Shown here: positions 2,276 to 50,225 of the stretch, one piece after another
How the letters are laid out: each line of letters starts with the position of its first letter
Numbering within the stretch: the first letter of the stretch is position 1
Virus record (IMG/VR): IMGVR_UViG_2925891887_000005
DNA length: 50,264 nucleotides
Origin: a virus
Lineage: Duplodnaviria; Heunggongvirae; Uroviricota; Caudoviricetes
Direction: 5' to 3' (one strand)
The notes under the pieces: generated by a model
The model's input: the letters and a program-made list of their open reading frames with translations, nothing else
The model's database searches: none
Told to the model about the DNA's origin: nothing
Made by a program: the position numbers and the translations under genes

Positions 2276-3505
2276 TTAGGCTACCAGAGCATTTGATCTT
2301 TGAGCTTGAACGTAATCACTCCACCATTGCATCAAACTCTGTCGCTCTATCAGATATTCTGCACGATTGTATGCTGCGATAATTTCATCTTTTTTCGAGT
2401 GGGCAAGCGCTGCCTCAAGAACTTCAGCTCTGAATTTACCAGACTCCTCTGCCGCTGTTCGTGCAATAGAACGCATACCGTGAGCTACAAGCTCGCCTCC
2501 GAACCCCATTCGGATGATAGCTGCGTTGGCTGTTTGTTCATGCATATGATTAAGAGGCGCTTTTATGCTGGGGAAAACCCATTCTCTATGCCCACTTATT
2601 GATTTCATTAATTCAAGGATGCGCAAAGCTTCTTTACTCAAAGGAACTTTGTGAAGCTTTTTCATTTTCATGAAATCAGCAGGAATGTTCCAAATGCTGT
2701 TGGTTGTATCAATATCAGACCACCTTGCGCGAACGGCTTCACCCGGACGAACCCATGTCAACAATTGCCATTCAATTAGCATACGTGTTTCCAACCGGAT
2801 TGACGCATTCGTCAAAGATTCCATAAACCTTGGCAATTCGCTTGGGGGAAGGGCAGGCATATTTTGCTTTTTTGGTTTACTGAATCTTTGACCAAGGTTG
2901 TCAGCCGGGTTGAACTCAATAAGTTCTTCAGTAGCTGCCCACCGGAAGATTTCATTCAGACGTGAAATGATACGGCGTAGAGTTTCCAATACGCCTCGTT
3001 GCTCAATAGGATCAAGGTGTTGTTTTAAGAGCTTAGGTCGGATCTCATTGATAGGGACATTACCCAGACCGGGAAAGACATTTCTCTCTAAGCTGCGCCA
3101 GATGTCTGCTGCATGGTCTTGTGAGATACCTGATGTCTTTACCTTCTCATCTAACCATTTCCGCGCTACGGCTTGGAGAGTGTGCTCAGTAGCACTCTTT
3201 AATGCCTTCGCCTTATCGTTGTTATGGATTTGGGGATCAACACCATTTGCCAGAAAGGAGAGATATTCATCACGTAAGGCTCTGGCTCTTGCAAGGGTAA
3301 GGTGAGGATATGTCCCAAGGCTCATTTTGGTTCTTTTCTTGCTCACTGGTACTGCATACCTGAAATACCAATTTTTCTTGCCTCCTTTCGCCAAAGGAGC
3401 GATTCGTAGAATCAGACCATCACCGTCAAACAAGTTGATTTCTTTATCGGCTGGCTTGGTACTTTTGATTTCAGTGTCAGTGAGCTTCTTAGCGATTTTT
3501 GCCAT
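2276..3505 (-). CDS. int: P4-family tyrosine integrase (N-terminal DUF4102-type arm domain)
   Basis: N-terminus KKLTDTEIKSTKPADKEINLFDGDGLILRIAP...WYFRY is the signature of CP4-57/P4-type integrases; C-terminal catalytic region present. Start chosen at internal MAKIAKK (the track ORF extends to 3547). Lies beside the ssrA 3'-end remnant. Confidence 0.85.
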   Translation of the reverse strand: MAKIAKKLTDTEIKSTKPADKEINLFDGDGLILRIAPLAKGGKKNWYFRYAVPVSKKRTKMSLGTYPHLTLARARALRDEYLSFLANGVDPQIHNNDKAKALKSATEHTLQAVARKWLDEKVKTSGISQDHAADIWRSLERNVFPGLGNVPINEIRPKLLKQHLDPIEQRGVLETLRRIISRLNEIFRWAATEELIEFNPADNLGQRFSKPKKQNMPALPPSELPRFMESLTNASIRLETRMLIEWQLLTWVRPGEAVRARWSDIDTTNSIWNIPADFMKMKKLHKVPLSKEALRILELMKSISGHREWVFPSIKAPLNHMHEQTANAAIIRMGFGGELVAHGMRSIARTAAEESGKFRAEVLEAALAHSKKDEIIAAYNRAEYLIERQSLMQWWSDYVQAQRSNALVA

Positions 3506-3670
3506 TTTGGGACCCTCGGTTTTTGGACCCTTCTTAGTGGGTCCCATTCAGGGTGCCATAACTCGTAGTTCTCAGCAATTCTCACTGGACGACAATAGAC
3601 GTAAAAAAGCCCGCAGAGCTTGTGCTGTGTGGGCTTAGTAGACTTCATTGAACTTCAAACAACTAAAAAG

Positions 3671-3700
3671 TGGTGGAGCTGGCGGGAGTTGAACCCGCGT
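3671..3700. repeat. 30-bp direct repeat of the ssrA 3' end (attachment-site core; left prophage boundary)
   Basis: tggtggagctggcgggagttgaacccgcgt at 3671-3700 is identical to 49863-49892, the 3' terminus of intact ssrA; flanking sequence diverges on both sides. Confidence 0.85.
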
Positions 3701-3841
3701 ATGATTGAATTTATGTGTATGAAAAATAAAGTTTAATTTCTTCCTGCAATCTTTGCGTATCAAAAACGTGCACTTCGTCATTATTTTATAGTAATTTATT
3801 TTGCTCATTTTTGACTAGACAGATTTGGCTGAGGTGTCGCC

Positions 3842-4765
3842 ATGGAACTGTTGATTTCCCCAAAAAGATTGTGCCTTTATAATGATTCTGATCGCCGTGT
3901 TACAGCTAAGTTTTTGAACTCAGTTGATAACACCCTTGCGAGAGCATCTGGACAAGTGGTTATAGACTTTTCGACAGTAGAATATGCAGGTGCTGCAGCT
4001 AGCGTAAGGTTGTTTGCTATCATCAGTAGGGCTTATTTTATGGCATTCGGCACAAGTAGTCTTCGATTTATTTGGCCGAAAAAAGAAAATAATCCGTATG
4101 GGCATCGATATATTGTTGGGACGGGGTTATCGATTGCTCTAATGGCAAATACAGTTGATAAATTAGATGTTCTTACTAAGGAACGCAGGTACTTTCAGTC
4201 TGCTGTGGAACCGTATGAACATTGGGCTAAAACGATGGAATTTATTGATTCAAAAGCAATTCTCACATTTGAGCAATATCTTTTGGTCTCCTCAGCCCTT
4301 AGTGAGGCAATGCTGAATGTTTCATATCATGCATATGAACATCCAGACTTTGCTGGTGCTACAGAGCATATGCAAGGGAAACGATGGTGGCAGAGTTGTT
4401 GGTACAACCCTGACACAGACAAGGTTGTCTTTATTATTTATGATCTTGGGCTTGGCATACATAAATCATTTACTTCAGCCTCTCCGTTGTTTACTGGGTA
4501 TGACGACGTGACATCTGTGTCAACAGCCCTGACAGGAGGACAGTCCAGATATGTTAACGCTGGACGTGGTAATGGTTCTGAGGATATAAAGAGACCTATA
4601 GGGTCTGGCTGTGCGAATTCAGAATCACTTTTGGTGTTCACAGGGAATGTTAAGTACAGCTATAATTCAAGAAATGAGGTTCCCAAATGCGAGTGGATAC
4701 CTGAGTACATGCCGGGAACATTGATTGAATGGTCATTAGTTCCGAGGAGAGGAGAAGATGGTTAA
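3842..4765 (+). CDS. GHKL-type (histidine-kinase-like) ATPase-domain protein, possibly with an N-terminal STAS-like segment
   Basis: N-box-like SEAMLNVSYHAYEH, G1-like IIYDLGLGI and G2-like GRGNGS...IGSG motifs in the C-terminal half. N-terminal VVIDFSTVEYAGAAASVRLF resembles STAS-like folds. GAGG ribosome-binding site 8 nt upstream of the ATG. Confidence 0.6.
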   Translation: MELLISPKRLCLYNDSDRRVTAKFLNSVDNTLARASGQVVIDFSTVEYAGAAASVRLFAIISRAYFMAFGTSSLRFIWPKKENNPYGHRYIVGTGLSIALMANTVDKLDVLTKERRYFQSAVEPYEHWAKTMEFIDSKAILTFEQYLLVSSALSEAMLNVSYHAYEHPDFAGATEHMQGKRWWQSCWYNPDTDKVVFIIYDLGLGIHKSFTSASPLFTGYDDVTSVSTALTGGQSRYVNAGRGNGSEDIKRPIGSGCANSESLLVFTGNVKYSYNSRNEVPKCEWIPEYMPGTLIEWSLVPRRGEDG

Positions 4766-5099
4766 CATCGTCATAGCAAGGGATTTCTCAAAGATGCCAT
4801 TTGGAAGGTTCAAGTCTGACAGCCCGAACAGTGCTGAGCGTTTTCGTAAGGACTTTCTGGTTCCTGCATTAAAATCTGGTGAGCGTGAGGTTGTCGTAGA
4901 TTTTACGGGTATAAATCATGGGATTGGTTCTTCGTTTCTAGAGGAGGCCTTTGGAGGGCTTGTTAGGAAGGAAGGTGTACCTAAGGCTGACATTAAGGCA
5001 AAACTAATTATAAAAAGTGATTTGCCGTTCTATAAAGATCAAATTTTTAGATATATTGAAATGGCTAATCCAGAAAGGAAGCCTTTCCAAAGGAGTTGA
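4758..5099 (+). CDS. STAS-like (DUF4325-like) small protein, putative partner of the upstream GHKL ATPase
   Basis: 113 aa. Motif VVVDFTGINHGIGSSFLEEAFGGL matches the conserved core I recall for STAS-like/DUF4325 domains. ATG overlaps the upstream stop (translational coupling) and follows a GAGGAGAGGAG ribosome-binding site. Confidence 0.55.
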   Translation: MVNIVIARDFSKMPFGRFKSDSPNSAERFRKDFLVPALKSGEREVVVDFTGINHGIGSSFLEEAFGGLVRKEGVPKADIKAKLIIKSDLPFYKDQIFRYIEMANPERKPFQRS

Positions 5100-5100
5100 T

Positions 5101-5730
5101 TTGAACACCGTTGATATTAAGGACACCCTTGCAGGGGTGTCCACTTACGCATGGATGTTTAGTGTTGTGAGTATTATCTTAGTGTTTATTGGATGGTTTG
5201 TTACTTACAATAATTCACTGAAGATTGCTACTCGCTCTGAATCTAAATCGATTATAGATGCGATTGCTAAAATTTTAAACGAAATATCGGATTTGTCTCT
5301 GGATTACTGGGTTAATAAGTCAACACCACCAGATTCTAATCCATTTAAGAAAAAAAGTTTTAAGAACTCTAATGGATTGCATACTCAGTCGGCGAAAATA
5401 TATTTAACGGCAATTCATGGAAAAGCCATACAAATAAATAAATACATTAATCTTCTCGATGAGAGGGGGATAAAAATAACAATTTCGTATTTTTCTAATA
5501 TTATAGATGAAGCTACTATGGAATGTGAGAAATCATATTGTTTTAATAAGTCATATAGGGTTTTTCGCGCTCAGAATGTATCTAGTGCTTGTATCGATTT
5601 CATAATGCATTTATATGATTCTTTTCAAAAAAATCATCCTCCACGTAAGCCTGTATATGTATTGAAAACATTAAAACAATTGGATTGTTACTTGGATAAA
5701 TGGCATAATGAATTATGTGGGCGGCAATAA
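5101..5730 (+). CDS. Membrane-anchored protein (single N-terminal TM helix plus about 170-aa soluble domain), function unknown
   Basis: Track ORF is 5017-5730. AAGGAG sits 5 nt before an in-frame TTG at 5101, immediately after the upstream stop; alternative starts are ATG 5017 or ATG 5155. TM segment YAWMFSVVSIILVFIGWFVTY. Very AT-rich. Confidence 0.5.
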   Translation: MNTVDIKDTLAGVSTYAWMFSVVSIILVFIGWFVTYNNSLKIATRSESKSIIDAIAKILNEISDLSLDYWVNKSTPPDSNPFKKKSFKNSNGLHTQSAKIYLTAIHGKAIQINKYINLLDERGIKITISYFSNIIDEATMECEKSYCFNKSYRVFRAQNVSSACIDFIMHLYDSFQKNHPPRKPVYVLKTLKQLDCYLDKWHNELCGRQ

Positions 5731-5742
5731 ATGCCGCCATAA

Positions 5743-6909
5743 TCATTGTATAATGTATTTGATGGAGCTTTTTCCGTCGTATTCTTTGAGATATCGACCA
5801 TAGTGCCTGAAAAGCATCTCCGGCCCTTTATGCCCCATTTGAGCTGCAAGCCAAAACAGGTTTGCTCCTCGGCTGATATGGCTGGTGGCGAATGTATGCC
5901 TGGTTTGATATGGGTTTCTGTAACGAATACCTGCTTTTCGCAATGTTGGCACCCATGCTTTTTTCCTAATTGCATCAGCACTTGCCCAAGGCTTATTGGT
6001 CTTTGGATCTTCAAAGACAGTAGTATCCTTCATGAATGTAAATGGCTTCTGATTTATCAGCGCCAACATTGCCTCTTCTGTCAGTTCAACTTTCCGAGTA
6101 CCTGCTTTTGTCTTTGTCCCTTTGATAACACCGACAACACTTGCGCTCTGGACATAGGCAGTTTTTCCAACAAAGTCGATATCACGCCATCGAAGGGCAC
6201 ATAATTCAGAACTACGCAGGCCTGTATGTATAGCGAACCGGAACAGATTTTCCCATTGTTTGTTTCCGGCTGCTGCTAGTAATGCATCAACTTCTGCTGG
6301 TGATAGCGGATCAACTACGTAGCTGCTTTCTGCTTCTGACTTATCACTTTGGTAGCGCGAAGCTGTTACTAACGATACGGGGTTAATTTGAAGTACCCCA
6401 TCGGTCACGGCTTCATCAAGTGCTGACCGCAGGAAAGATAACTGGTTGCGAATTGTTTTTAAGGTCGTTTTCTGATTTTGAATCCACGCTTTCAGGGTTG
6501 CTGGTGTTAATTCACTTGCAGGGCAAATGTGAAGTGAGGCTAACGCACTACGGCATTTTTTATAGCCACCAATCGTAGAGGGTGAAAGTTTTCTTGTTTC
6601 GCAGATTTCAAGATATTCGTCCAGGTACATCTTTACCGTTTTGCCTGCAGCAGCATTACCAAAAATTTTCAAACGAGCAGAACGGGGAAAATATTCTGCA
6701 TAAATGAATGTTCCCCTTTCGATCTTATTATGGATTTCGCCGAGTGTACGCTCGGCGTATTTAATGTTCTTTGGTGTTACTTCCAGATTGGAAAGCGGCT
6801 CACGACATCTAACTCCTTTGTAGGTGAAAGTTATATTGATCGTTTCTCCCTGGCGGTGTTTCCTGATTGTTACGCCGCGCGGTAGTTTGAGCAGTTTTGT
6901 CTGGCCCAT
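5743..6909 (-). CDS. int: Prophage tyrosine integrase (lambda-type, arm-binding N-terminus)
   Basis: 388 aa with a catalytic C-terminus (R...HxxR...Y pattern: RHTFATS, LFRHYGRY) and an N-terminal arm-type domain. Immediately downstream of xis in the leftward operon. Confidence 0.9.
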   Translation of the reverse strand: MGQTKLLKLPRGVTIRKHRQGETINITFTYKGVRCREPLSNLEVTPKNIKYAERTLGEIHNKIERGTFIYAEYFPRSARLKIFGNAAAGKTVKMYLDEYLEICETRKLSPSTIGGYKKCRSALASLHICPASELTPATLKAWIQNQKTTLKTIRNQLSFLRSALDEAVTDGVLQINPVSLVTASRYQSDKSEAESSYVVDPLSPAEVDALLAAAGNKQWENLFRFAIHTGLRSSELCALRWRDIDFVGKTAYVQSASVVGVIKGTKTKAGTRKVELTEEAMLALINQKPFTFMKDTTVFEDPKTNKPWASADAIRKKAWVPTLRKAGIRYRNPYQTRHTFATSHISRGANLFWLAAQMGHKGPEMLFRHYGRYLKEYDGKSSIKYIIQ

Positions 6910-7076
6910 TTTGCAACCTCACTAAGATCAATCCACCTCTCCTTAACGCCTTCAACCTTTAAAACCTGAACACCTTCACGCCAAACACCGCGCTGTACAC
7001 GTTTGTTTATTGCTTCAGGAGTTTCGCCAGTTTCTTTGCAATAAGTTGAGATAGGAACACAATCGAGGTTCAGCAT
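6870..7076 (-). CDS. xis: Excisionase (Xis-like DNA-binding protein)
   Basis: Small basic ORF overlapping the int start; winged-helix-like TGETPEAINKRVQRGVWREG. Start placed at MLNLDC, which has GGAG 8 nt upstream; the track ORF extends to 7115. Confidence 0.65.
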   Translation of the reverse strand: MLNLDCVPISTYCKETGETPEAINKRVQRGVWREGVQVLKVEGVKERWIDLSEVAKWARQNCSNYRAA

Positions 7077-8617: not shown

Positions 8618-8745
8618 TTTATTCTCCACGTTATATGCGCTGCATCGCGCTGAATTTTGGTTAAAGAAAACCCTCGCCTTCAGGCGATTATTGAGTCAAT
8701 TACGTTTCCATAAATGCCCCCGCAGGGGCATTTGCAGTAATGAAA

Positions 8746-9570
8746 TCAGGCGGTGAAAGTCCCAATAAAGGTTTCTACTTTGCTGTCCTTGAATTTCTCA
8801 ACAAGCAGATCACGAAATTCGTTAGCCATTTCTTCCTGCACCGCCTCCAGCTGAATAATGCGCAGAACCAGTACAGGACGATCGCCAGTGATAATACTGA
8901 GGCGTAATTTAAACGGACGTTCTTTCAGACCTTCAAACGGAACGCATTTAAATTCAAATGCCACTGGCATAATGTCTTTGGTCTTCGCTTCGACAGACTC
9001 CATCAGGGAGCGTTTGCCGCTGAAGTCATTATCTTCAAAATCAGCGGTCTGGTTTGCTTCAATCGTGATTTTACGGACAGCCGCAGCCGCTTTTGTTGCC
9101 TGAATAGCGTCACCATTAGCATCAAAGCCCACAAGATAGTCGGCCCAGTCTTCAATCCATTCTGCTAGTGACTTCTGGGAGTTACGCTCGCCGTTAACAG
9201 ACAACAGAGCAGAGAACGGTGCTGTCTTTTTCAGTTTGAGTGTGGCGGTGTTATCTGCGTGACCTGGTTCATCAATAGTACCCAGGTTAAGCACACTGAC
9301 GGCACGCATATTATCAGCATCGATAAAGCAGCGGGTGCCTTCATCTGCAAGATCTTTAGAATAACGGGTAAAGTCATCGATGCTGGCAGTGGAAAGCGCA
9401 CCACGGAAACGGAAGCGATTTAAATTAAATTTTTCCAGATCATGAATGCGGAAATTCTCAGGCAATGCCACAGCATCGGCACCAATCTTACTGATAATTT
9501 CATTAACACCCTGAGCAGAAATAAGGGCATGGATTTGATTAATTGCGGTTGCGTCTAAGTTCTGAGACAT
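8746..9570 (-). CDS. yfdQ: YfdQ-family (DUF2303) prophage protein
   Basis: 274-aa ORF; length and sequence recalled as matching the CPS-53 YfdQ family. GAGGA ribosome-binding site upstream. Confidence 0.75.
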
Positions 9571-9635: not shown

Positions 9636-9998
9636 TTAATGACCTGCTGCGCGAAGTTTTCCGTCAGGTTCACCGGCAAGAGTCAGTAATTGTCCCTGGT
9701 CTTCCTGCAGAATAGTCAGGCGACCACCGCGATTGACATACATCGGTGTTTCGGTGGTGTCTTCTTCAGAAATTTTCCCGCGGTTAGTCGGGCGAACATA
9801 TGAGAGTTTGTGTTTGATTTTCACACGGTTCTCATCAAACGGTTCGATTTCCAGGTTGAGCGAGACCTTACCTTTGGTTTTCGTGTTCATCACACCGGAA
9901 GCGACTTCACTGAGAACAGCGCCGATTTTGGTTTCAAATACGCCGCCGTCCAGCTCCCCGATAAATGCCTGCACATCAGTACTGCGTTCGCTAGCCAT
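9636..9998 (-). CDS. YfdP-like small prophage protein
   Basis: Start set at MASERS, which has GAGGAG 7 nt upstream; the track's 197-aa form carries an unlikely N-terminal extension. Confidence 0.55.
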   Translation of the reverse strand: MASERSTDVQAFIGELDGGVFETKIGAVLSEVASGVMNTKTKGKVSLNLEIEPFDENRVKIKHKLSYVRPTNRGKISEEDTTETPMYVNRGGRLTILQEDQGQLLTLAGEPDGKLRAAGH

Positions 9999-12227: not shown

Positions 12228-13060
12228 ACAGTTTAACGGCAAATAACCGTTTGTCGCAACAGCTGGTGGTCAGCGTCGCTGAACACCTGTTGTTACGGCA
12301 TGAATGCAGATTACCAAATCACCTGGCTGTAAGTAACCACAGAGAACTTTACCTGACTGTGGGGGGCGAGTTGTGCAGGAACTTAACCGCTGGTTTCGTG
12401 ACGGAAGAGGACTTTATGTTCATGTTATTCGTTGGGAGCCAGAAACACAGCGCGTTATCTATCTTCGCAAAGACTACCCGCATGAGTGCTTTAGTCCTTT
12501 GTGGAAATTCAGGCGTGATTTTATTGAGTGTGAAGGACCACCAGCACATTGATTCTGCCATTCCGGGACGTTACACTGTTCAGGCACCTTATAAAGCGGG
12601 TGCCGGGATTGGCGTCCTGGAATTGATCAAGGCGATATATGACGCGCCAGCGTCTTTTTTATCGTCCGCATTTGCTCACATCAAAGTTATGGTGGGCTGG
12701 GCGGGGGCATCGAAAGATGCGCCGGTTTCCTTGATCACCGGTTACGCCAACCCCGTTCAGTTCACCACCAGCGAAATTGGCGTTTCCGGTGGTGGAAGTA
12801 TTTCACCGATCAAGGAGGCTGCCATCATGGCTACTGTCCCAGCCCTCACTCGTCTGAATGATGAAGACTTACATAAACTCAGTTATGTAACAACAGCACT
12901 ACGTGCTCTGCGCAAGGTAACTCTTTCAGATCCGCAGGCGCATCAACTTCTGGTAGAAACCCTTCTTAACTTGCAGGCTGAACGTATTCGTTTGGCGGAT
13001 AAGGCTAATCTTCATATTCACCGTCTCCTGAATATCAGCGGAGGGCATCGTCATGCTTAA
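12224..13060 (+). CDS. Hypothetical early protein(s); coding frame ambiguous
   Basis: ATG overlaps the upstream stop (ATGA). There is an internal AAGGAGG plus ATG at 12827, and an alternative-frame GTG ORF at 12373-12552; it may be one gene or several small ones. Confidence 0.35.
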   Translation: MNSLTANNRLSQQLVVSVAEHLLLRHECRLPNHLAVSNHRELYLTVGGELCRNLTAGFVTEEDFMFMLFVGSQKHSALSIFAKTTRMSALVLCGNSGVILLSVKDHQHIDSAIPGRYTVQAPYKAGAGIGVLELIKAIYDAPASFLSSAFAHIKVMVGWAGASKDAPVSLITGYANPVQFTTSEIGVSGGGSISPIKEAAIMATVPALTRLNDEDLHKLSYVTTALRALRKVTLSDPQAHQLLVETLLNLQAERIRLADKANLHIHRLLNISGGHRHA

Positions 13061-23390: not shown

Positions 23391-25492
23391 TGCTGAATCA
23401 GGAAACCGCAAAGGCAGCACGAACCGATTCAGGTTATATCCTTCGCGCACCGAGACGAATGCGGGTTGCTGATGCCGTTGCTCAGTATATGCGGGTGCCC
23501 ATGGGGGCAGGGAACTCAGTCCCGTGGGATCCGCTGGTGGCACCGTATGTTATTGAGCCGATGAACTGCCTGGCCTCGCGTGAATACGACGCAGTGATAT
23601 TTGTTGGCCCGGCACGAACCGGCAAGACTATCGGCCTGATTGACGGCTGGGTGATTTACAACGTGATTTGCGATCCTGCTGATATGCTGATTATTCAGAT
23701 GACGGAGGAAAAAGCCCGCGAACACTCCAAAAAACGACTCGCCAGAACGTTTCGCGTCAGCCCGGAAGTGGTCAGTCGCCTGAGTCCGAACAAAAATGAC
23801 AACAACGTTTATGACAGAACATTCCTTGCTGGTAACTACCTGAAAATCGGCTGGCCGTCAGTCAATATCATGTCCTCATCAGATTATAAATGCGTCGCGC
23901 TGACGGATTATGACCGTTTTCCGGAAGATATTGATGGCGAGGGGGATGCTTTCTCTCTTGCCTCAAAACGTACCACAACATTTATGTCCAGTGGTATGAC
24001 GCTGGTGGAGAGTTCCCCCGGCAGGGATGTGAAGGATGTGAAATGGCGAAGGACTTCACCGCATGAGGCTCCACCAACCACGGGGATACTGTCGCTCTAT
24101 AACCGTGGCGATCGCCGTCGCTGGTACTGGCCCTGTCCACACTGTGGTGAGTATTTTCAGCCCTGCGGCGATGTGGTTGCTGGTTTCCGTGATATTGCCG
24201 ATCCCGTGCTGGCAAGTGAGGCGGCTTATATTCAGTGTCCTTCCTGTTCAGGACGGATTATGCCTGAACAAAAACGTGAGCTGAACGGACGTGGGGTCTG
24301 GTTGCGGGATGGTGAATCCATCAATGCGGATGGCAGTCGTTATGGTGATCCCCGACGCTCACGTATTGCGTCATTCTGGATGGAGGGTCCGGCAGCTGCT
24401 TACCAGACACTCTCGCAACTCGTTTACAAACTGCTTACTGCAGAACAGGAATACGAGACAACCGGAAGTGAAGAAACACTCAAGACGGTTATCAATACCG
24501 ACTGGGGATTACCTTATCTTCCCCGCGCCAGCATGGAGCAACGAAAAAGTGAACTGCTTGAGCAGCGGGCAGAGCCAGTTCCTTCCCGCAGTGTGCCGGA
24601 TGGCGTTAATTTCCTTGTGGCGACAGTGGATGTGCAGGCGGGACGTCATCGCCGTTTTGTGGTTCAGGTAACGGGCTATGGCAGCCGTGGCGAACGCTGG
24701 ATTATTGATCGTTACAACATCACGCAGTCATTGCGCGGTGACAGCGACGGGGAGAGCCAGCGAATTGATCCGGCCAGCTATCCGGAAGACTGGGATGTCC
24801 TGCTGACGGATGTTTTTCATAAAAGCTGGCCGCTGGCCTCCGATCCTTCTCAACAAATGCGACTGATGGCAATGGCGGTGGACTCCGGCGGTGAAGACGG
24901 GGTCACTGATAATGCCTATAAATTCTGGCGTCGTTGCCGTCGTGATGGCCTTGGTAAACGTATTTACCTGTTTAAGGGCGACAGCATCCGGCGCGCAAAA
25001 CTGATCACCCGTACATTCCCTGATAACACCGGACGAACGGGCCGACGGGCGCAGGCCGCAGGTGATGTGCCGCTCTGGCTTCTTCAGACGGATGCACTGA
25101 AAGACCGGGTGAATAACGCGTTATGGCGTGACTCGCCAGGTCCCGGCTATGTGCATTTCCCTGACTGGCTGGGGAGCTGGTTTTACGACGAACTGACGTA
25201 TGAAGAGCGGAGCAGTGACGGGAAATGGAGTAAGCCGGGTCGCGGTGCCAACGAAGCTTTTGACCTGATGGTGTATGCCGAGGCTCTGGTCATTCTGCAT
25301 GGATACGAAAAGATCCGCTGGCCGGATGCACCGGAGTGGGCGAGCCGGGAAACCTGGCTGGAGTGTGTCCCGGACAGTATCGAACCGTCACCCTCACCGG
25401 AACCGGTATCCACGCCTGTTAAAAAACAAAAACGGAAGAAAACAGTAACTGACGATGTTAACCCCTGGCTGACTTCCGGAGGATGGTTATGA
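23390..25492 (+). CDS. A: Terminase large subunit (gpA-like)
   Basis: 700 aa; Walker A-like VGPARTGKT; lambda gpA-type architecture. Confidence 0.9.
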   Translation: MLNQETAKAARTDSGYILRAPRRMRVADAVAQYMRVPMGAGNSVPWDPLVAPYVIEPMNCLASREYDAVIFVGPARTGKTIGLIDGWVIYNVICDPADMLIIQMTEEKAREHSKKRLARTFRVSPEVVSRLSPNKNDNNVYDRTFLAGNYLKIGWPSVNIMSSSDYKCVALTDYDRFPEDIDGEGDAFSLASKRTTTFMSSGMTLVESSPGRDVKDVKWRRTSPHEAPPTTGILSLYNRGDRRRWYWPCPHCGEYFQPCGDVVAGFRDIADPVLASEAAYIQCPSCSGRIMPEQKRELNGRGVWLRDGESINADGSRYGDPRRSRIASFWMEGPAAAYQTLSQLVYKLLTAEQEYETTGSEETLKTVINTDWGLPYLPRASMEQRKSELLEQRAEPVPSRSVPDGVNFLVATVDVQAGRHRRFVVQVTGYGSRGERWIIDRYNITQSLRGDSDGESQRIDPASYPEDWDVLLTDVFHKSWPLASDPSQQMRLMAMAVDSGGEDGVTDNAYKFWRRCRRDGLGKRIYLFKGDSIRRAKLITRTFPDNTGRTGRRAQAAGDVPLWLLQTDALKDRVNNALWRDSPGPGYVHFPDWLGSWFYDELTYEERSSDGKWSKPGRGANEAFDLMVYAEALVILHGYEKIRWPDAPEWASRETWLECVPDSIEPSPSPEPVSTPVKKQKRKKTVTDDVNPWLTSGGWL

Positions 25493-32387: not shown

Positions 32388-35300
32388 TTTGGGGATTGAT
32401 GCGGCAGAGTTTAAAAATGAAATTCCCCGTATCAAAAACCTTCTGAATGGTGCAGCCAGCGATGCAGAACGGTCTTCTGCCCGTATGCAGCGTTTTATGG
32501 AGCGTCAGACTCAGGCCGCCCGGCAGACAATGCAGGCGGCTTCTTCGGCTGCAACAGCCGCATCCGTCCATGCGCAGACGGTGGAGAAGAGCGCACAGGC
32601 TCATGAACGCATGGCCCGCGAGGTGGAGCAAACCCGCCAGCGTATGGAGGCACTGAGCCAGAAAATGCGCGAGGAACAGGCGCAGGCCATGGCTCTGGCG
32701 GAGGCTCAGGATAAAGCGGCTGCCGCGTTTTATCGTCAGATTGACAGTGTGAAACAGGCCAGTGCGGGACTGCAGGAATTACAGCGTATTCAGCAGCAGA
32801 TCCGACAGGCCAGAAACAGTGGCGGGATTGGTCAGCAGGATTATCTGGCGCTGATTTCTGAGGTTACGGCGAAAACCGGTGTTCTTACGCAGGCTGAGGC
32901 AGAGGCTACCCGACAGAAAGTGGCGTTTATCCGTCAGCTTAAAGAGCAGGCAACCCGCCAGAATCTTTCTTCTTCTGAGTTGCTTCGTGCTAAGGCTGCC
33001 CAGCTGGGGGTAAGCAGTGCTGCAGAAGTGTATATCCGCAAAATGGAGCAGGCAGGAAAAGCCACGCATTCGCTGGGTCTGAAAAGTGCAGCGGCCCGCC
33101 AGGAGATAGGCGTTCTGATAGGTGAACTGGCTCGCGGCAATTTAGGTGCGCTGAGGGGATCCGGGATAACGCTGGCTAACCGTGCCGGATGGATAGACAC
33201 ACTGATGTCACCGAAAGGCATGATGCTGAGCGGGGTTATTGGCGGTATTGCCGCGGCCGTCTATGGTCTGGGTAAAGCCTGGTATGATGGTCAGAAGGAG
33301 GGGGAAGAATTTAACCGCCAGTTGTCGCTGACGGGGCATTATGCCGGAGTCACTGCCGGGCAGCTGTGGACGCTCAGTCGTGCTATTTCCGGGAATGGTA
33401 TTACGCAACATGCTGCAGCCGGTGCGCTGGCTCAGGTGGTGGGGAGTGGTGCATTTCGTGGAAACGATATCGGTATGGTGGCGAGAGCTGCCGCACAGAT
33501 GGAGCGATCGGTTGGCCAGTCGGTCAGCGATACCATAAATCAGTTTAAGCGGCTGAAGGATGATCCTGTAAATGCCGCGAAGGCTCTGGACAATGAGCTG
33601 CATTTTCTTACTGCCACTCAGCTTGAGCAGATACGCGTCCTTGGGGAACAGGGGCGGTCCAGTGATGCGGCACGGATAGCCATGTCTGCACTGGCAGAGG
33701 AAACCGGTCGGCGTACTGCGGATATTGATAATAACCTCAATGCGCTGGGCAGTACGCTGAAGTATCTGTCTGATTTATGGAGTCGTTTCTGGGATGCGGC
33801 CATGAATATTGGTCGTGAAGACTCGCTGGATGAACAGATTTCCGCTTTACAGGAGAAAGTGTCGCGGGCGAAAAGACTCCCCTGGACGGCATCATCTTCT
33901 CAGGTTGAGTACGATCAGCAGCGTCTTAACGAGCTTCAGGAGAAAAAACGCCAGAAGGATTTGCAGGATGCAAAAGAGCAGGCAGAGCGGAATTATCAGG
34001 AGCAACAGAAACGCCGTAATGCTGAAAATGCTGCACTGAACCGGATGAATGAAACGGAAGCAGCACGACATCAGCGTGAAATTGCGCGTATTAATTCCAT
34101 GCAGTACGCCGATCAGGCTGTCAGGGATGCGGCGATACAACGTGAAAATGAACGTTACGAGAAAGCCCTGGCATCCGGTAAGAAAAAAACACGCGACCCC
34201 CGTAATGATGAGGCCACCCGGTTATTGCTGCAGTACAGTCAGCAACAGGCACAGGTGGAAGGACAGATTGCTGCTGCCAGACAGTCAGCAGGCATTGCCA
34301 CGGAAAGGATGACAGAAGCGCATAAACAGCTTCTGGCTCTGCAGCAGCGCATCAGCGACCTGGACGGGAAAAAACTGACGGCAGATGAAAAGAGTGTGCT
34401 GGCCCGTAAAGATGAACTGATTCAGGCACTGACGCTGCTGGATGTAAAACAGCAGGAGCTTCAGAAACAGACGGCACTCAACGAGCTGAAGAAAAAAACA
34501 ATTCAGCTGACCAGTCAACTGGCTGAAGAAGAGCGCGCTCAGCGTCAGCAACATGACCTGGATATCGCCACGGTGGGTATGGGTGATCAGCAGCGGCAGC
34601 GATATCAGGTACAACTGAGTCTTCGCCAGAAATACCAGCAACAGCTGGAGCAGTTGAGGCGGGATAGTGAGCAGAAAGGAACATATAACACGGATGACTA
34701 CAGAAAGGCCGAGCAGGCGCTGACGGAGAGCCTGAACCGACAACTGAATGAGAATCGCCGTTACTGGCAACAGCTTGAAGTTGTGCAGGGTAACTGGAAA
34801 AACGGAGTCCTGCGTGCATTTCAGGATTTTACCGTGGATGCAGATAATACGGCAGGAACAGCAGAACAGGTGTTCTCGTCAGCCTTCAGCAACATGGGAA
34901 ATGGCCTGGCAACTTTTGTCACTACCGGCAAACTCAATTTCAAATCCTTCACCTCTTCTGTGCTGTCAGATATGGCGAAAATCCTGGCGCAGGCAACCAT
35001 GATGAAATCGATAAAAGGGATTGGCAGTGTACTGGGATTTGATCTCAGCAGCCTTTCCCTGAATGCCAATGGGGGGATTTATCAGTCTGCTGATTTGAGT
35101 CGTTACAGTGGCACGGTGGTTAACCGTCCGACGTTTTTTGCTTTTGCAAAAGGCGCGGGTGTGATGGGGGAAGCGGGACCTGAAGCCATTCTGCCACTGC
35201 GTCGTGGTGCTGACGGTAAGCTGGGGGTTGTGGCGGATATTGGTGGTTCAGGTATGGCGATGTTTGCCCCGCAGTACAACATCGAGATCAATAACGATGG

Positions 35301-35424
35301 CACGAACGGGCAGATAGGTCCGGCTGCCCTGAAGGTGGTTTATGACCTCGGGAAAAAAGCGGCAGCGGACTTTATGCAACAGCAGGCCCGTGATGGTGGT
35401 CGGTTAAGTGGAGCATATCGGTAA
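32359..35424 (+). CDS. H: Tail tape measure protein H
   Basis: About 1020 aa, coiled-coil rich; C-terminus INNDGTNGQIGPAALKVVYDLGKKAAADF matches lambda gpH. Confidence 0.9.
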   Translation: MDQIANLVIDLGIDAAEFKNEIPRIKNLLNGAASDAERSSARMQRFMERQTQAARQTMQAASSAATAASVHAQTVEKSAQAHERMAREVEQTRQRMEALSQKMREEQAQAMALAEAQDKAAAAFYRQIDSVKQASAGLQELQRIQQQIRQARNSGGIGQQDYLALISEVTAKTGVLTQAEAEATRQKVAFIRQLKEQATRQNLSSSELLRAKAAQLGVSSAAEVYIRKMEQAGKATHSLGLKSAAARQEIGVLIGELARGNLGALRGSGITLANRAGWIDTLMSPKGMMLSGVIGGIAAAVYGLGKAWYDGQKEGEEFNRQLSLTGHYAGVTAGQLWTLSRAISGNGITQHAAAGALAQVVGSGAFRGNDIGMVARAAAQMERSVGQSVSDTINQFKRLKDDPVNAAKALDNELHFLTATQLEQIRVLGEQGRSSDAARIAMSALAEETGRRTADIDNNLNALGSTLKYLSDLWSRFWDAAMNIGREDSLDEQISALQEKVSRAKRLPWTASSSQVEYDQQRLNELQEKKRQKDLQDAKEQAERNYQEQQKRRNAENAALNRMNETEAARHQREIARINSMQYADQAVRDAAIQRENERYEKALASGKKKTRDPRNDEATRLLLQYSQQQAQVEGQIAAARQSAGIATERMTEAHKQLLALQQRISDLDGKKLTADEKSVLARKDELIQALTLLDVKQQELQKQTALNELKKKTIQLTSQLAEEERAQRQQHDLDIATVGMGDQQRQRYQVQLSLRQKYQQQLEQLRRDSEQKGTYNTDDYRKAEQALTESLNRQLNENRRYWQQLEVVQGNWKNGVLRAFQDFTVDADNTAGTAEQVFSSAFSNMGNGLATFVTTGKLNFKSFTSSVLSDMAKILAQATMMKSIKGIGSVLGFDLSSLSLNANGGIYQSADLSRYSGTVVNRPTFFAFAKGAGVMGEAGPEAILPLRRGADGKLGVVADIGGSGMAMFAPQYNIEINNDGTNGQIGPAALKVVYDLGKKAAADFMQQQARDGGRLSGAYR

Positions 35425-35753
35425 TGGAGACGTTTCACTGGAAAGTGCGCCCGGATATGAATGTGGTATCAGAGCCGAAAGTGGTGACAGTGAAGCTGGG
35501 CGATGGTTATGAACAGCGTCGTGCGGCGGGACTGAATAACCAGTTGTCGATTTACAGCGTGACGATACGTGTTCGTAAATGTGAACACCCATCTTTAAAA
35601 GCCTTTCTGGAACGGCACGGTGGCGTCCGCGCATTTCAGTGGACGCCACCTTATGACTGGAAGCCGATCAGGGTGGTTTGTCGTAAATGGTCGGCAAGCG
35701 TGGGGGCGCTGTGGATAACCATAACGGCAGATTTTGAACAGGTCGTGGCATAG
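35424..35753 (+). CDS. M: Minor tail protein M
   Basis: Lambda gpM-like; TAATG overlap with H. Confidence 0.9.
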   Translation: METFHWKVRPDMNVVSEPKVVTVKLGDGYEQRRAAGLNNQLSIYSVTIRVRKCEHPSLKAFLERHGGVRAFQWTPPYDWKPIRVVCRKWSASVGALWITITADFEQVVA

Positions 35754-35762
35754 GAGGCTCTG

Positions 35763-36461
35763 ATGCAGGATATTCCACAGGAAACACATCATGAGACGAC
35801 ACGCCTCACTCAGTCAGCCCAGGTGGTGCTCTGGGAAATCGATCTGACAGAGGTCGGTGGTGAACGTTATTTTTTCTGTAATGAGCAGAACGAAAAAGGT
35901 GAGCCGGTTACCTGGCAGGGGCGGCAGTATCAGGCATACCCCATTCAGGGGACGGGATTTGAACTGAATGGCAAGGGCAGTGCTGCCCGTCCGACACTGA
36001 CGGTTTCTAACCTGCACGGCATGGTCACCGGGATGGCGGAAGACCTGCAGAGTCTGGTCGGCGGAACGGTGGTCCGGCGTAAGGTTTACGCCCGTTTTCT
36101 GGATGCGGTGAACTTCGTCAACGGAAACAGTGACGCCGATCCGGAGCAGGAGGTGATCAGCCGCTGGCGCATCGAGCAGTGCAGCGAACTGAGCGCGGTG
36201 AGTGCCTCTTTTGTACTGTCCACGCCGACGGAAACGGATGGCGCTGTTTTTCCGGGACGTATCATGCTGGCCAACACCTGCACCTGGACCTATCGCGGTG
36301 ATGAGTGCGGTTATCACGGTCCGGCAGTCGCGGATGAATATGACCAGCCGACGTCCGATATCACGAAGGATAAATGCAGCAAATGCCTGAGCGGCTGTAA
36401 GTTTCGCAATAACGTCGGCAACTTTGGCGGCTTCCTTTCCATTAACAAACTTTCGCAGTAA
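35763..36461 (+). CDS. L: Minor tail protein L
   Basis: Lambda gpL-like with a C-terminal Cys cluster. Confidence 0.9.
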   Translation: MQDIPQETHHETTRLTQSAQVVLWEIDLTEVGGERYFFCNEQNEKGEPVTWQGRQYQAYPIQGTGFELNGKGSAARPTLTVSNLHGMVTGMAEDLQSLVGGTVVRRKVYARFLDAVNFVNGNSDADPEQEVISRWRIEQCSELSAVSASFVLSTPTETDGAVFPGRIMLANTCTWTYRGDECGYHGPAVADEYDQPTSDITKDKCSKCLSGCKFRNNVGNFGGFLSINKLSQ

Positions 36462-36465
36462 TCCC

Positions 36466-37209
36466 ATGACAGAGACAGAATCAGCGATTCTGGCGCACGC
36501 CCGGCGATGTGCGCCAGCGGAGTCGTGCGGCTTCGTGGTGAGAACGCCGGAGGGGGAAAGATATTTTCCCTGCGTGAATATCTCCGGTGAGCCGGAGGAT
36601 TATTTCCGGATGTCGCCGGAGGACTGGCTGAGTGCAGAAATGCAGGGAGAGATTGTGGCGCTGGTCCACAGCCACCCCGGTGGTCTGCCCTGGCTGAGTG
36701 AGGCCGACCGGCGGCTGCAGGTGCAGAGTGATTTGCCGTGGTGGCTGGTCTGCCGGGGGGCGATTCATAAATTCCGCTGTGTGCCGCATCTCACCGGGCG
36801 GCGCTTTGAGCACGGGGTGACGGACTGTTACACGCTGTTCCGGGACGCTTACCATCTGGCGGGAATTGAGATGCCGGATTTGCATCGCGGGGATGACTGG
36901 TGGCGTCACGGCCAGAATCTCTATCTTGACAATATGGAGGCAACGGGTTTTTACCGTGTCCCACTGACAGAGGCGCAGCCTGGCGACGTGCTGCTGTGCT
37001 GTTTTGGTTCATCGGTGCCGAATCATGCCGCCATTTACTGTGGCGACGGCGAGCTGCTGCACCATATTCCTGAACAACTGAGTAAACGAGAGAGGTACAC
37101 CGACAAATGGCAGCGACGCACACACTCCCTCTGGCGTCACCGGGCATGGCACGCATCTGCCTTTACGGGGATTTGCAACGATTTGGTCGCCGTATCGACC
37201 TTCGTGTGA
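36466..37209 (+). CDS. K: Tail assembly protein K (JAB/MPN plus NlpC/P60 domains)
   Basis: Lambda gpK-like (HSHPGG metal site; later Cys/His pair). Confidence 0.9.
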   Translation: MTETESAILAHARRCAPAESCGFVVRTPEGERYFPCVNISGEPEDYFRMSPEDWLSAEMQGEIVALVHSHPGGLPWLSEADRRLQVQSDLPWWLVCRGAIHKFRCVPHLTGRRFEHGVTDCYTLFRDAYHLAGIEMPDLHRGDDWWRHGQNLYLDNMEATGFYRVPLTEAQPGDVLLCCFGSSVPNHAAIYCGDGELLHHIPEQLSKRERYTDKWQRRTHSLWRHRAWHASAFTGICNDLVAVSTFV

Positions 37210-45118: not shown

Positions 45119-45702
45119 TGGCATTCAGAATGAGTGAACAACCACGGACCATAACAATTTATAATCTGCTGGCCGGAACTAATGAATTTATTGGTGAAGG
45201 TGATGCATATATTCCGCCTCATACAGGTCTGCCAGCAAACAGTACCGATATTGCACCACCAGATATTCCTGCTGGCTTTGTGGCTGTTTTCAACAGTGAT
45301 GAGGCATCGTGGCATCTCGTTGAAGACCATCGGGGTAAAACGGTTTATGACGTGGCTTCCGGCGACGCGTTATTTATTTCTGAACTCGGTCCGTTACCGG
45401 AAAATGTTACCTGGTTGTCGCCGGGAGGGGAGTATCAGAAGTGGAACGGCACAGCCTGGGGGAAGGATACGGAAGCAGAAAAACTGTTCCGGATCCGGGA
45501 GGCAGAAGAAACAAAAAACAGCCTGATGCAGGTAGCCAGTGAGCATATTGCGCCACTTCAGGATGCTGTAGATCTGGAAATCGCAACGGAGGAAGAAAAC
45601 TCGTTGCTGGAAGCCTGGAAGAAGTATCGGGTGTTGCTGAACCGTGTTGATACATCAACTGCACCGGATATTGAGTGGCCAGAAGAACCAGACACCGTGT
45701 AA
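45118..45702 (+). CDS. tfa: Tail fibre assembly protein Tfa
   Basis: Lambda Tfa-like; TAATG overlap with stf. Confidence 0.85.
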
Positions 45703-45771: not shown

Positions 45772-46590
<819 letters not shown>

Positions 46591-46951
46591 TCATTGCAAG
46601 GGCTCACAACCAGTAGTGTTGAGAAAACCATCGGAGAAATGAGGCTAAGCCTTTGAATTTACATAGTACAAAAAAGATACTTTTCCTCATAATGTGAGCT
46701 AATTTTATGTTTCGTTTGATGATTGGACCGGTCTCGAAAACCGTAGACACATAGTATGCGTTAATTTATGAACAAACTACTTGTCTGCTGTTTTTCTGTC
46801 ATTAGTCGTATATAGAATGATTCTCTATGCCTAACAAAGCATCACCAGTGCTAGATTACGTTGTAGTCACTGTTTAAATATCCAGATAAAACATTTCCTT
46901 CTGGGTTGAATGAGTGATAAAGTTTCACCCATTAGACCCCTTGGAGGAATT

Positions 46952-48385
46952 ATGTCTGAATTTGAAGTGTTGGCACAGCATCTGCTGAAGGAAGCCGAGG
47001 CGGAAGAAAAGCTGCGACAGGAAAATGATAAAAAGCTTATCGAGAAAGTGCTGGAAATCTATGATCAGAAGTATGTGGCTGAATTACTGAGAAAAGTCGG
47101 AAAAAATGAGTGGAGCCGTGAAACCATTAACCGCTGGATTAATGGCAAGTGTTTACCAAAATCGTTGACTTCAGTAGAAGAGTCTCTTCTGCGTAAGATG
47201 CTACCAGAACCACCTGCAAACCATCCGGAATATGCTTTCCGCTTCATTGACTTATTTGCTGGAATTGGAGGGATACGGAAAGGTTTTGAGGCCATTGGAG
47301 GCCAGTGTGTTTTTACCAGTGAATGGAATAAAGATGCTGTGCGTACATACAAGGCCAACTGGTTTAACGATGAACAGGTGCATAAATTCAATCTCGATAT
47401 TCGGGAAGTCACGCTGAGTGATAAAACCGATGTATTGGAAACGGATGCTTATGCATATATTGATGAGCATGTGCCGGATCATGATGTGCTTCTTGCGGGG
47501 TTCCCGTGCCAGCCATTTAGCCTTGCTGGTGTTAGTAAGAAAAACTCACTTGGTCGTGCGCATGGTTTTGAATGTGAAGCACAAGGAACACTTTTTTTTG
47601 ACGTGGCACGTATTATACGAGCAAAAAAACCGGCAATTTTTGTGCTGGAAAATGTCAAAAATCTGAAGAGCCATGATAAGGGTAAAACTTTCAAAGTCAT
47701 TATGGAGACCCTTGACGAGCTGGGCTACGAAGTTGCCGATGCTGCAGAAATGGGAAAAAACGATCCAAAGATTATCGATGGGAAGCATTTTTTGCCTCAG
47801 CATCGTGAACGCATTGTTCTGGTCGGATTTAGACGAGATCTGAATATTCACAAGGGGTTTACCTTGCGTGATATCAGTCGTTTTTATCCGGAACACCGCC
47901 CATCATTTGGTGAATTGCTGGAGCCTGTAGTCGACAGTAAATATATACTTACGCCAAAACTATGGGAGTACCTTTATAACTACGCCAAAAAGCATGCAGC
48001 CAAGGGGAATGGTTTTGGCTTTGGGTTGGTCAATCCTGAGAATAAGGAAAGCATTGCACGCACACTTTCTGCCAGATATCACAAAGACGGATCAGAAATT
48101 CTTATTGATCGTGGTTGGGATATGGCAACGGGAGAGGCTGACTTTATGAATGAGAGTAATCAGGCTCGTCGACCACGCAGGCTGACTCCCCGAGAGTGCG
48201 CACGCCTTATGGGATTTGAAAAACCTGGAGGGAAACCATTCCGTATTCCGGTTTCAGATACTCAGTCATATCGGCAGTTCGGTAACTCAGTTGTGGTGCC
48301 AGTATTTGAAGCTGTTGCCAGACTTCTGGAACCCTATATCCTCAAAGCTGTTTCTGCTGATGCTGGTAAGACTGGGCAGCCTTGA
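46952..48385 (+). CDS. dcm: C5-cytosine DNA methyltransferase, Dcm / M.EcoRII-like (CCWGG)
   Basis: [17 protein letters not shown] (motif I), GFPCQPFS (motif IV), ENV (motif VI), QFGNSV; near-identical to Dcm/M.EcoRII as recalled. Start at MSEFE with a GGAGG ribosome-binding site; the track ORF starts at 46910. Confidence 0.9.
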
Positions 48386-48391
48386 GAACAT

Positions 48392-48414
48392 CTCCCGGCC
48401 TTTTAAGCCGGGAG
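48392..48414. terminator. Hairpin between the convergent methyltransferase and endonuclease genes
   Basis: CTCCCGGCcttttaaGCCGGGAG inverted repeat. Confidence 0.4.
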
Positions 48415-48419
48415 TCAGC

Positions 48420-49634
48420 CTATGATAGTTCAGCGTAAAGCTCTATCAGCTCAGTAATGAATGCTCCGAGCGTTATTAATTCTTCTCTAACTGCTTCTGG
48501 GTATTTTTTATGTAAAGTTGATGGTACAACGAGTCTGACACCCGCATCTTTCATTTCTCGGTATTGTGCTGAAGAAACACCTTCTTGCAGTGTAAATAAA
48601 TGTACCTGATGGATTTTATCTGCTTCATTCAGTATCTGACGCCAGCGATCTTTGCAGGTGGTCTTTACTGCCAGCATACGTAAGTTTTCTACAGGAAATT
48701 CAACGTTATGATATGCCTCTGCTGAAGGAAACAGGAAATCTGGTTTTTTATTACCTTCAGTAACTGCCTGAGTGGAGAAATGCCGTAGTCCGTGCTCGAT
48801 AAAAAGCTTCTCTAGGTGAAGTTCAAGTGATTTGCCTGCCCTTGATTTACGTCGATTACTGACAGAGTTGGCTAATGCAATAAACTCATCTACAGAATCG
48901 AATCCTTTCTTAATAATATCAAGAACATGTAATTCCTCGACGAGTAGAAAAATATCATACTCGACACGCCGACGGTCAATCAGTTGCTCATCTGGATCCT
49001 TGGAGTTTTTAGCATAATGGCCAGCAGCATATTGAATAATTTCGTTTCCAGAAGGAAAACGCTTCTTCCAGTCTTCAGGAATAACATATTTATGATTTAC
49101 TGGAGTTTGCTGAAGAGACAATCCGCCCAAAATTTGTCCGGCAGGGCCGGAAATTAGGGTTCCAGGTATGATTTCGCCAATAGCAGACTCGATGATATCC
49201 TCTTCATCGGGATTGACGCAGACCCATATATCTACCTCGGAACAGTCAGTGTTCTGTTCGTTTAACCTGAAAGCAAGAATTGTGAGGGCTCCTGTATTTT
49301 CAGGGTTCTGTAATGGACTTCCTCTCCCCCAGCGCGTAATTCTTTTTTCGTTTCGGGTCTTACCAAAATAACGGTTGTTGTAATAAATTGCGCGTGCTTG
49401 GGTATCAGGGCAATCATGGGATGATACATGCGCAGTAAGGAAGACTGAAGGGTTCAGTTCGCGAGTATGATTGATAGATGGAAAAAGCTTTTCAACGATA
49501 TTTGAGGGGATATAAAGTCCGACCTGATGGCCACCTGTTGCGCCTGTGTCGTTTGCAGAAAGGCGTTTGATGTAGATAAAGTAATTCCCGCTTGCGATAT
49601 CAAGCAGCCAGTTATGAAAAACCGACATATACAT
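48420..49634 (-). CDS. ecoRIIR: Type IIE restriction endonuclease, EcoRII-like
   Basis: 404 aa; N-terminus SVFHNWLL...YIKRLSANDTGATGGHQVGLYIP matches the EcoRII effector domain as recalled; convergent with the methyltransferase. Confidence 0.85.
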   Translation of the reverse strand: MYMSVFHNWLLDIASGNYFIYIKRLSANDTGATGGHQVGLYIPSNIVEKLFPSINHTRELNPSVFLTAHVSSHDCPDTQARAIYYNNRYFGKTRNEKRITRWGRGSPLQNPENTGALTILAFRLNEQNTDCSEVDIWVCVNPDEEDIIESAIGEIIPGTLISGPAGQILGGLSLQQTPVNHKYVIPEDWKKRFPSGNEIIQYAAGHYAKNSKDPDEQLIDRRRVEYDIFLLVEELHVLDIIKKGFDSVDEFIALANSVSNRRKSRAGKSLELHLEKLFIEHGLRHFSTQAVTEGNKKPDFLFPSAEAYHNVEFPVENLRMLAVKTTCKDRWRQILNEADKIHQVHLFTLQEGVSSAQYREMKDAGVRLVVPSTLHKKYPEAVREELITLGAFITELIELYAELS

Positions 49635-49711
49635 CCCTTTGTTAACATACAGTCAGGGTTAACATTTTTCCATAGTTATAGATAAGCGGCTAGGAACTTA
49701 AGGGAAAAACA

Positions 49712-49735
49712 AAAAGCCCGCATAAGCGGGCTTTT
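49712..49735 (-). terminator. Rho-independent terminator downstream of ssrA (within attR-proximal prophage DNA)
   Basis: Minus-strand AAAGCCCGCTTATGCGGGCTTT followed by TTGTTTTT. Confidence 0.55.
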
Positions 49736-49862
49736 GTGTCACTCGAGAGCCGCGGCTCCTTTGCGTATCCTTTTTTGTCTCCTCACCGTCTGGTCGGTGT
49801 CCTGCTGAGACTGCTAACTTCCTGTTTTTGTTGGTGTTGTCCTTACACCGTCCAATCATGAT

Positions 49863-49892
49863 TGGTGGAGCTGGCGGGAGTTGAACCCGCGT
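49863..49892. repeat. attR core: 3' end of ssrA, identical to the repeat at 3671-3700
   Basis: Exact 30-bp identity with 3671-3700. Confidence 0.85.
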
Positions 49893-50225
49893 CCGAAATT
49901 CCTACATCCTCGGTACTACATGCTTAGTCAGTCTTTACATTCGCTTGCCAACTGCGGACGGACACGCCACTAACAAACTAGCCTGATTAAGTTTTAACGC
50001 TTCAACCCCAGGCAGGGCTTCCACGCGATCTCTTTTGGGTTTGACCTCTCTTGATCCCCGTCCTAAGAGCGGAGGCTAGGGAGAGAGGGCTCTAAGCAGG
50101 TTATTAAGCTGCTAAAGCGTAGTTTTCGTCGTTTGCGACTATTTTTTGCGGCTTTTTACGAGGCCAACCGCCCCTCGGCATGCACCTTGGGTTTCGCAAA
50201 TCCCGTCGAATCCAGAATCAGCCCC
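49863..50225 (-). ncRNA. ssrA: tmRNA (SsrA), complete 363-nt gene
   Basis: Reverse complement reads GGGGCTGATTCTGGATTCGACGGG ... tag ORF GCAAACGACGAAAACTACGCTTTAGCAGCTTAA (ANDENYALAA) ... GGTTCAACTCCCGCCAGCTCCACCA; a TATACT -10 element lies just upstream at about 50240. Confidence 0.95.

Follow-up and report, generated by a model that had tools for sequence, protein, structure and literature searches.

The window, a stretch of 50,264 nucleotides of Escherichia coli chromosome (100% identity to strain 22AR0322), contains two integrase genes of different type and two copies of the 3' end of the tmRNA gene ssrA. This raises the question whether one composite element or two separate ones occupy ssrA and, in the latter case, which came first and which can still leave. 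A preliminary description had proposed two sequential integrations, with a lambda-like phage inserted between ssrA and a pre-existing island bearing a P4-type integrase. The results reported below lead us to conclude that a lambdoid phage of the LLS/phiNP type very probably integrated at the ssrA of a lineage that already carried a decayed P4-type island.

The repeat at ssrA and the elements that it delimits

TGGTGGAGCTGGCGGGAGTTGAACCCGCGT was detected by pattern search and by reading of the letters at 3671-3700 and at 49863-49892, in both cases on the + strand and identical in 30 of 30 nucleotides. No further copy with up to three mismatches was present in the window by pattern search, and 100 dinucleotide-preserving shuffles yielded no match to the 30-mer; none is expected by chance. 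The borders of identity were sharp (g/t at 3670/49862 and a/c at 3701/49893). An intact, full-length ssrA was placed at 49863-50225 by ARAGORN and Rfam, and the 30-mer therefore represents the ssrA 3' end, comprising the T stem-loop, the 3' acceptor strand and CCA. The identity of the distant copy with the ssrA terminus, in the same orientation, from which the preliminary description had started, is thus exact. The principal features are given here with coordinates and strand.

1-1749, + strand: Response_reg_2 protein of the island, 582 aa (Pfam)
1821-2237, - strand: hypothetical protein of the island, 138 aa, no family match
2276-3547, - strand: P4-type integrase of the older island, ORF intact (RefSeq start at 3505)
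3607-3621, - strand: terminator-like hairpin in the island flank (putative terminator), located just downstream of ssrA in island-only strains
3671-3700, - strand: displaced original ssrA 3' end; joins the int side of the prophage to the ssrA-proximal edge of the P4-type island
3701-3841, + strand: int-side phage arm (equivalent of the P' arm), non-coding, with TTTGCGTATC at 3752-3761
3842-5730, + strand: three-gene cargo cassette of 1.9 kb between attP and int
5743-6909, - strand: lambda-type tyrosine integrase of the prophage (Pfam Arm-DNA-bind_2 and Phage_integrase)
6870-7076, - strand: excisionase gene, overlapping int at the int start; its product shares 93% identity with the Xis annotated in phage phiNP
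7118-45702: prophage body according to the RefSeq annotation of the identical sequence, with early genes, CI-like repressor, replication, Q, lysis, terminase and portal genes and, further, protease-capsid fusion, tail, J, Lom and tail fiber genes
49708-49862, + strand: ssrA-side phage-borne arm (equivalent of the P arm), 155 bp, non-coding
49712-49735: terminator hairpin in this arm, reading on the ssrA strand
49863-49892, - strand: ssrA-proximal 30-nt copy; ssrA-prophage junction, opposite the int end
49863-50225, - strand: ssrA, intact and full-length (ARAGORN, tag ANDENYALAA; Rfam RF00023, 294 bits)

Positions 3701-49862 are a complete lambdoid prophage, the boundaries of which are thereby fixed to the base, with one copy of the core to be added. 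Its integrase gene lies 2.04 kb to the right of the 3671-3700 copy, close to the 2 kb given previously, and the encoded protein is 86% identical to the integrase of phage LLS and 92% identical to that of phage phiNP. The adjoining excisionase had no match in Pfam. An integrase with N-terminal arm-binding domain and a neighboring excisionase are thus both present. Rfam matches within the prophage comprised isrK (64 bits) beside C4 antisense RNA (82 bits) in the early region (window 12584-12772, + strand) and the sRNA IS009 (224 bits) overlapping the tail-fiber assembly gene (window 45461-45659, + strand).

The integrase to the left of 3671 exhibits the Pfam domains Arm-DNA-bind_3, Phage_int_M and Phage_integrase and is 48% identical over its full length to IntA of CP4-57 from strain K-12. 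Its start is 123 bp away from the 30-nt copy when the longest ORF is considered and 165 bp when the RefSeq start is taken; a distance of about 120 bp had been stated. The orientation equals that of intA beside ssrA in K-12, just as had been described for CP4-57-type islands, and with a P4-type integrase directly downstream of ssrA and co-oriented with it the island is CP4-57-like in this respect. The 3671-3700 copy includes the terminal ~14 nt that are duplicated by islands of this type.

Beyond the window, the island goes on with a HEF_HK/HATPase_c protein, an IS3 element and a truncated ygaQ, followed by glaH. Its gene set therefore amounts to four genes, encoding the integrase, the 138-aa protein, the Response_reg_2 protein and the HEF_HK/HATPase_c protein, and an AlpA-type excision factor was not among them. 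The HEF_HK plus HATPase_c protein (572 aa; extract 35094-36812, + strand) and the Response_reg_2 protein (582 aa) have the look of a stand-alone two-component-like module. PADLOC gave no match for this pair, which several hundred E. coli genomes carry at the same place.

A distal ssrA fragment belonging to the island was not found within 40 kb beyond the 3671-3700 copy, when the 30-mer was searched with up to three mismatches, 15-mers and 14-mers with up to two and 12-mers with up to one; only chance matches inside gabD, lhgO and nrdE were obtained. Because there is no second ssrA fragment, the island is left without any pair of sites and has only the middle copy, which it shares with the phage. 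Although its integrase ORF is intact, it is fixed in place because its far end and the second ssrA fragment have been lost. The earlier statement that each integrase is restricted to a pair of sites of its own consequently applies to the phage and not to the island. For annotation it matters that the P4-type integrase is part of a separate, immobilized island and not of the phage.

Occupation of ssrA in other genomes and the order of integration

The prophage was excised virtually by deleting 3701-49892 in silico, and the resulting junction of 1173 nt was searched against 5426 complete E. coli genomes. The 23 best-matching genomes contained it in full and without a mismatch (100% identity), and it was covered to at least 80% in 958 of the 5426, a figure that includes related P4-type integrases of ~80% identity. 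An unoccupied site equal to the prophage-deleted sequence thus exists in related strains. Among them is AR_0019, in which the same four island proteins (by accession), IS3 and the ygaQ remnant abut ssrA. The converse was seen in strain G749, which harbors the same prophage at ssrA (identical EcoRII, Dcm and GIY-YIG accessions) and no island; here the int end of the prophage adjoins native chromosome beside glaH. Island and phage occurred together with the cargo of the window in four genomes and with other cargo in roughly 30-58 genomes. Roughly 145 further island-bearing genomes had no ssrA under the match, as estimated from 5 of 60 rows sampled evenly down 1718 ranked matches; strain 06_3235, the sole one of these that was examined, contained a more divergent lambdoid phage between island and ssrA. 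In the record of Klebsiella phage Kp4866-6 (OK490421, 4614-4783, - strand), the flank of an ssrA fragment was nearly identical to the ssrA-adjoining CP4-57 flank of K-12, which suggests the same stacking of a lambdoid phage and a P4-type island in Klebsiella.

Comparison of related ssrA loci, which had been named as a way of checking the proposal, therefore uncovered island-only, phage-only and doubly occupied sites in complete E. coli genomes. Each element breaks off exactly at the 30-mer, so that 3671-3700 is an independent boundary; neither an undivided larger element nor an otherwise identical prophage lacking the repeat was encountered. The three configurations, together with the attP of free phages described below, bear out the proposed succession of two integrations, with the phage between ssrA and the older island. 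The notion of a single composite element, with the 3671-3700 copy as an internal relic lacking a boundary of its own, has adjacency and nothing more in its favor and is already refuted by the island-only and phage-only genomes, in which either half stands alone at ssrA with break points exactly at the 30-mer, and by LLS, which like phiNP is a free phage consisting of the phage half only, with contiguous attP.

The relative age of the two elements was deduced from the far end of the island. This truncated end, consisting of IS3 and the ygaQ remnant, was identical whether or not a strain carried the phage. Once truncated, an island cannot integrate at a later time. The island is therefore older than the phage. 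What could have happened otherwise is, first, that the array was imported ready-made from another strain by homologous recombination, through transduction or conjugation of the segment from smpB to gabD, or inherited in finished form, instead of arising by lysogenization of this strain. Exchange of such loci is common, the same arrangement with the same cargo was found in four genomes, and arrangements with other cargo occurred in unrelated isolates. Import would, however, change only the place of integration, as the junctions still call for site-specific integration into an island-bearing ssrA, and we regard it as an unlikely history for this strain. Still less probable is the reversed order, in which the phage came first and the island later entered the displaced 30-nt fragment. 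The order cannot be read from position alone, and the displaced fragment does hold the terminal 14 nt that are annotated in K-12 as the CP4-57 duplication, psaA. Yet the island end is cut alike with and without the phage (IS3, ygaQ remnant, no distal fragment), implying that the island was already immobile; several hundred genomes carry the island alone as opposed to tens with both elements; and several different phage variants adjoin an identical island.

According to the preferred reading, that is, entry of the phage into an island-bearing ssrA, an E. coli lineage would have possessed, right after ssrA, an island that was small and decayed and encoded a P4-type integrase. A lambdoid phage with an integrase of the LLS/phiNP family would then have entered by Int-mediated site-specific recombination, its attP recombining with the T-loop region of ssrA. 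This attP consists of a copy of the last 30 nt of ssrA and an arm of ~155 bp resembling the downstream flank. The last ~25 nt of ssrA and the terminator would thereby have been replaced by phage copies and the originals displaced, such that the phage copy at 49863-49892 would now complete a functional ssrA and bring a terminator along. The original ssrA 3' end would have moved 46.2 kb away to 3671-3700, still abutting the island, and the two 30-nt copies would represent the attachment junctions of the prophage.

Attachment arms, crossover and flanking cargo

Two adjoining GCGKMTCYTTT-like motifs were present ~50-80 nt int-side of the core in all variants, and in related phages this tandem motif had the same distance from the core as TTTGCGTATC of the window. 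The ssrA-side arm contains a motif pair, GCGGCTCCTTTGCGTATCC (window 49744-49770), that resembles the int-side pair. The 10-mer TTTGCGTATC occurred exactly at 3752 and 49760, i.e. once per arm. When one mismatch was allowed, seven occurrences were found in the whole window and 3.7 were expected; this enrichment is not significant, and the position in both arms is therefore the sole suggestive point for arm-type sites. It is plausible that the motif pairs in the two phage arms are candidate arm-type Int sites.

The sequence that natively follows ssrA in the phage-free strains MNCRE44 and FDAARGOS_1268 turned out to share ~92% identity with the ssrA-side arm, and so did the K-12 flank after psaA. 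The native-flank homologues of window 49708-49862 are situated at 6005-6155, 6001-6152 and 23487-23637 of the locus extracts. Island-only strains did not possess the arm. Since the native flank resembles it, likeness alone is insufficient for assigning the arm to the phage. In strain G749, however, the ssrA-side arm was 100% identical to that of the window, whereas the strain's own native flank at the far junction showed 91.8% identity. On this comparison of sequences, the arm at 49708-49862 is phage-borne. An estimate that ~45% of E. coli genomes harbor this phage family at ssrA was rejected, because phage-free genomes share the ~155-bp flank at ~92%; counted by int, the family is present in a few hundred genomes. 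The ~92% identical native flank of phage-free E. coli also contains the same motif pair as the int-side arm of the phage. The likeness of the flanks can be read in two ways: either the phage captured host flank, or the "native" flank is the relic of an earlier related phage.

Homology between this attP and the virgin attB of E. coli extends over ~185 bp. The repeat in the window is just 30 nt long because the far flank is island DNA. In G749, where the phage occupies a virgin site, direct repeats of ~183 nt with 92% identity flank the prophage (extracts 5152-5333 and 8704-8896). Such repeats could support RecA-dependent loss of the prophage besides Int-mediated excision.

The place of strand exchange was narrowed down by substitutions in the 30-mer. 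Numbered from 3671, the phage-associated substitutions at far junctions and in attP were confined to positions 26-30: position 26 in phiNP, 28 in M10, WP2-S18 and G749, 28 and 30 in 06_3235, and 30 in LLS. Because of this restriction, the exchange is placed left of position 26. A perfect inverted repeat, GCGGG-AGTTGAA-CCCGC, spans positions 12-28 (3682-3698 in the 3671-3700 copy), and the crossover most likely took place in the 7-nt T-loop AGTTGAA between GCGGG and CCCGC. An inverted repeat with an overlap of 7 nt is the usual layout of a tyrosine-recombinase core. A T-loop sublocation, to which the presumed crossover region corresponds, was reportedly described by Williams in 2002. With a crossover at this place, the final ~25 nt of ssrA were probably supplied by the phage attP on integration.

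The prophage is presumably competent for excision. Int and Xis should excise 3701-49892 or an equivalent segment, returning the displaced end to ssrA. Because the two 30-nt copies are identical, ssrA is predicted to be wild type thereafter; induction in the strain of the window, where the displaced copy is intact, is thus predicted to restore a normal gene. In other strains the displaced copy has decayed: strain C3 shows a G-to-A change at position 11 (extract 3870-3899), and 06_3235 has lost one TGG at the 3' end (extract 9668-9697). Excision in these two strains would give ssrA a mutant 3' end, comparable to the case of CP4-57 in K-12, the excision of which was shown experimentally to delete T357 of ssrA and to inactivate tmRNA (PMC10107115).

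Both ends of the prophage carry cargo, itemized here.

3842-5730, + strand, gene 1 of the int-side cassette: 307-aa protein with STAS and RsbW/SpoIIAB-like kinase
Gene 2 of the cassette: 113-aa STAS-like DUF4325 protein
Gene 3 of the cassette: 209-aa protein with one N-terminal hydrophobic helix
45772-46545, - strand: PD-T4-3 (GIY-YIG; Pfam; PADLOC E 7.6e-140)
46910-48385, + strand: Dcm-type methyltransferase (Pfam; PADLOC E 3.8e-230)
48420-49634, - strand: EcoRII-type endonuclease, 404 aa (Pfam; PADLOC E 1.5e-233)

Prophages that are otherwise similar differ in the entire content of the slot separating the int-side arm from int. Elsewhere it is filled with DarT and a NADAR partner, PD-Lambda-5, AbiLi/AbiLii, an OLD/Gabija-like ATPase (in phiNP) or unknown genes. 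The cassette of the window had no PADLOC or NCBIfam match, and a literature search on DUF4325 or partner-switching defense systems yielded nothing relevant. The grouping of its three genes recurs on a Pseudoalteromonas chromosome and in an unrelated prophage of Yersinia. Because of its location, the conservation of the operon and the predicted fold, the cassette is a candidate defense system. It is possible, if on balance doubtful, that it constitutes an undescribed prophage-borne anti-phage system acting by partner switching. In such a system, the fused STAS and RsbW/SpoIIAB-like serine kinase and the free DUF4325 protein would control a small membrane-anchored effector.

At the opposite end (45772-49634), PD-T4-3 and a complete EcoRII-type restriction-modification pair are located between the tail-fiber assembly gene and the attachment arm. 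As these fill the end opposite the int-side slot, both ends of the prophage can be regarded as defense cargo. The 404-aa ORF at 48420-49634 had been considered as a third integrase; this was rejected because Pfam and PADLOC identify it as an EcoRII-type endonuclease.

Comparison with known systems

The phage half of the array finds its counterparts in two free phages. In the annotation of Escherichia phage LLS (PQ299149), a tmRNA pseudogene and attP precede a cargo gene, int and xis, an order that agrees with the window. The circular record of Citrobacter phage phiNP (OR565852) is cut at the same core, with Int and Xis 92% and 93% identical, respectively. Both share the gene order of the window (arm, core, variable cargo, int, xis), and their attP combines an ssrA 3' copy with the arm that corresponds to window 49708-49862 (~125-155 bp). 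A contiguous attP of arm, core and arm is thus present in free phages of this family. They differ from the prophage of the window in the cargo of the slot and in the ssrA copy itself, which is a 30-nt match in the window, a 39-nt pseudogene with mismatches in LLS and a sequence with a mismatch at position 26 in phiNP. No sequenced free phage combined this exact attP, with both arms, and this cargo; the match to LLS is confined to the core and the ssrA-side arm.

The island resembles CP4-57 of K-12, where a P4-type integrase gene of like orientation also follows directly on ssrA (the integrases being 48% identical). CP4-57, however, measures 22 kb, possesses alpA and a distal 14-nt ssrA fragment (psaA) and can excise, whereas the island of the window comprises ~4 genes with other cargo, no alpA-like gene and no distal fragment. 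IS3 and the truncated ygaQ occupy the place that in K-12 is taken by the far end of CP4-57, psaA, ypjA and ileY.

That elements stack in tandem at tRNA and tmRNA genes is textbook knowledge, and arrays of islands at these genes are said to be treated by Williams (2003) in "Traffic at the tmRNA gene." The Islander survey listed 125 tandems in 2168 genomes, with the tmRNA gene as the most enriched target (PMC4383910), and tandem prophages at one locus are routinely read as successive integrations (PMC8112680). As in tandem arrays of the Islander type, the locus described here exhibits an intact target gene at one end (ARAGORN, Rfam), stacked elements and 3' fragments in the same orientation at the boundaries. 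Direct repeats of the target 3' end (30/30 nt) border the prophage on both sides. The strict Islander definition assigns one fragment and one integrase to each member of an array (PMC4383910). Each member has its own integrase (lambda-type at 5743-6909, P4-type at 2276-3547); a displaced fragment of its own is present for the phage (3671-3700), and none was detected for the island within 40 kb. The stacked array is a well-resolved instance of an already known arrangement, and its value lies in providing a clean, fully resolved example and in pointing to a defense-rich cargo slot.
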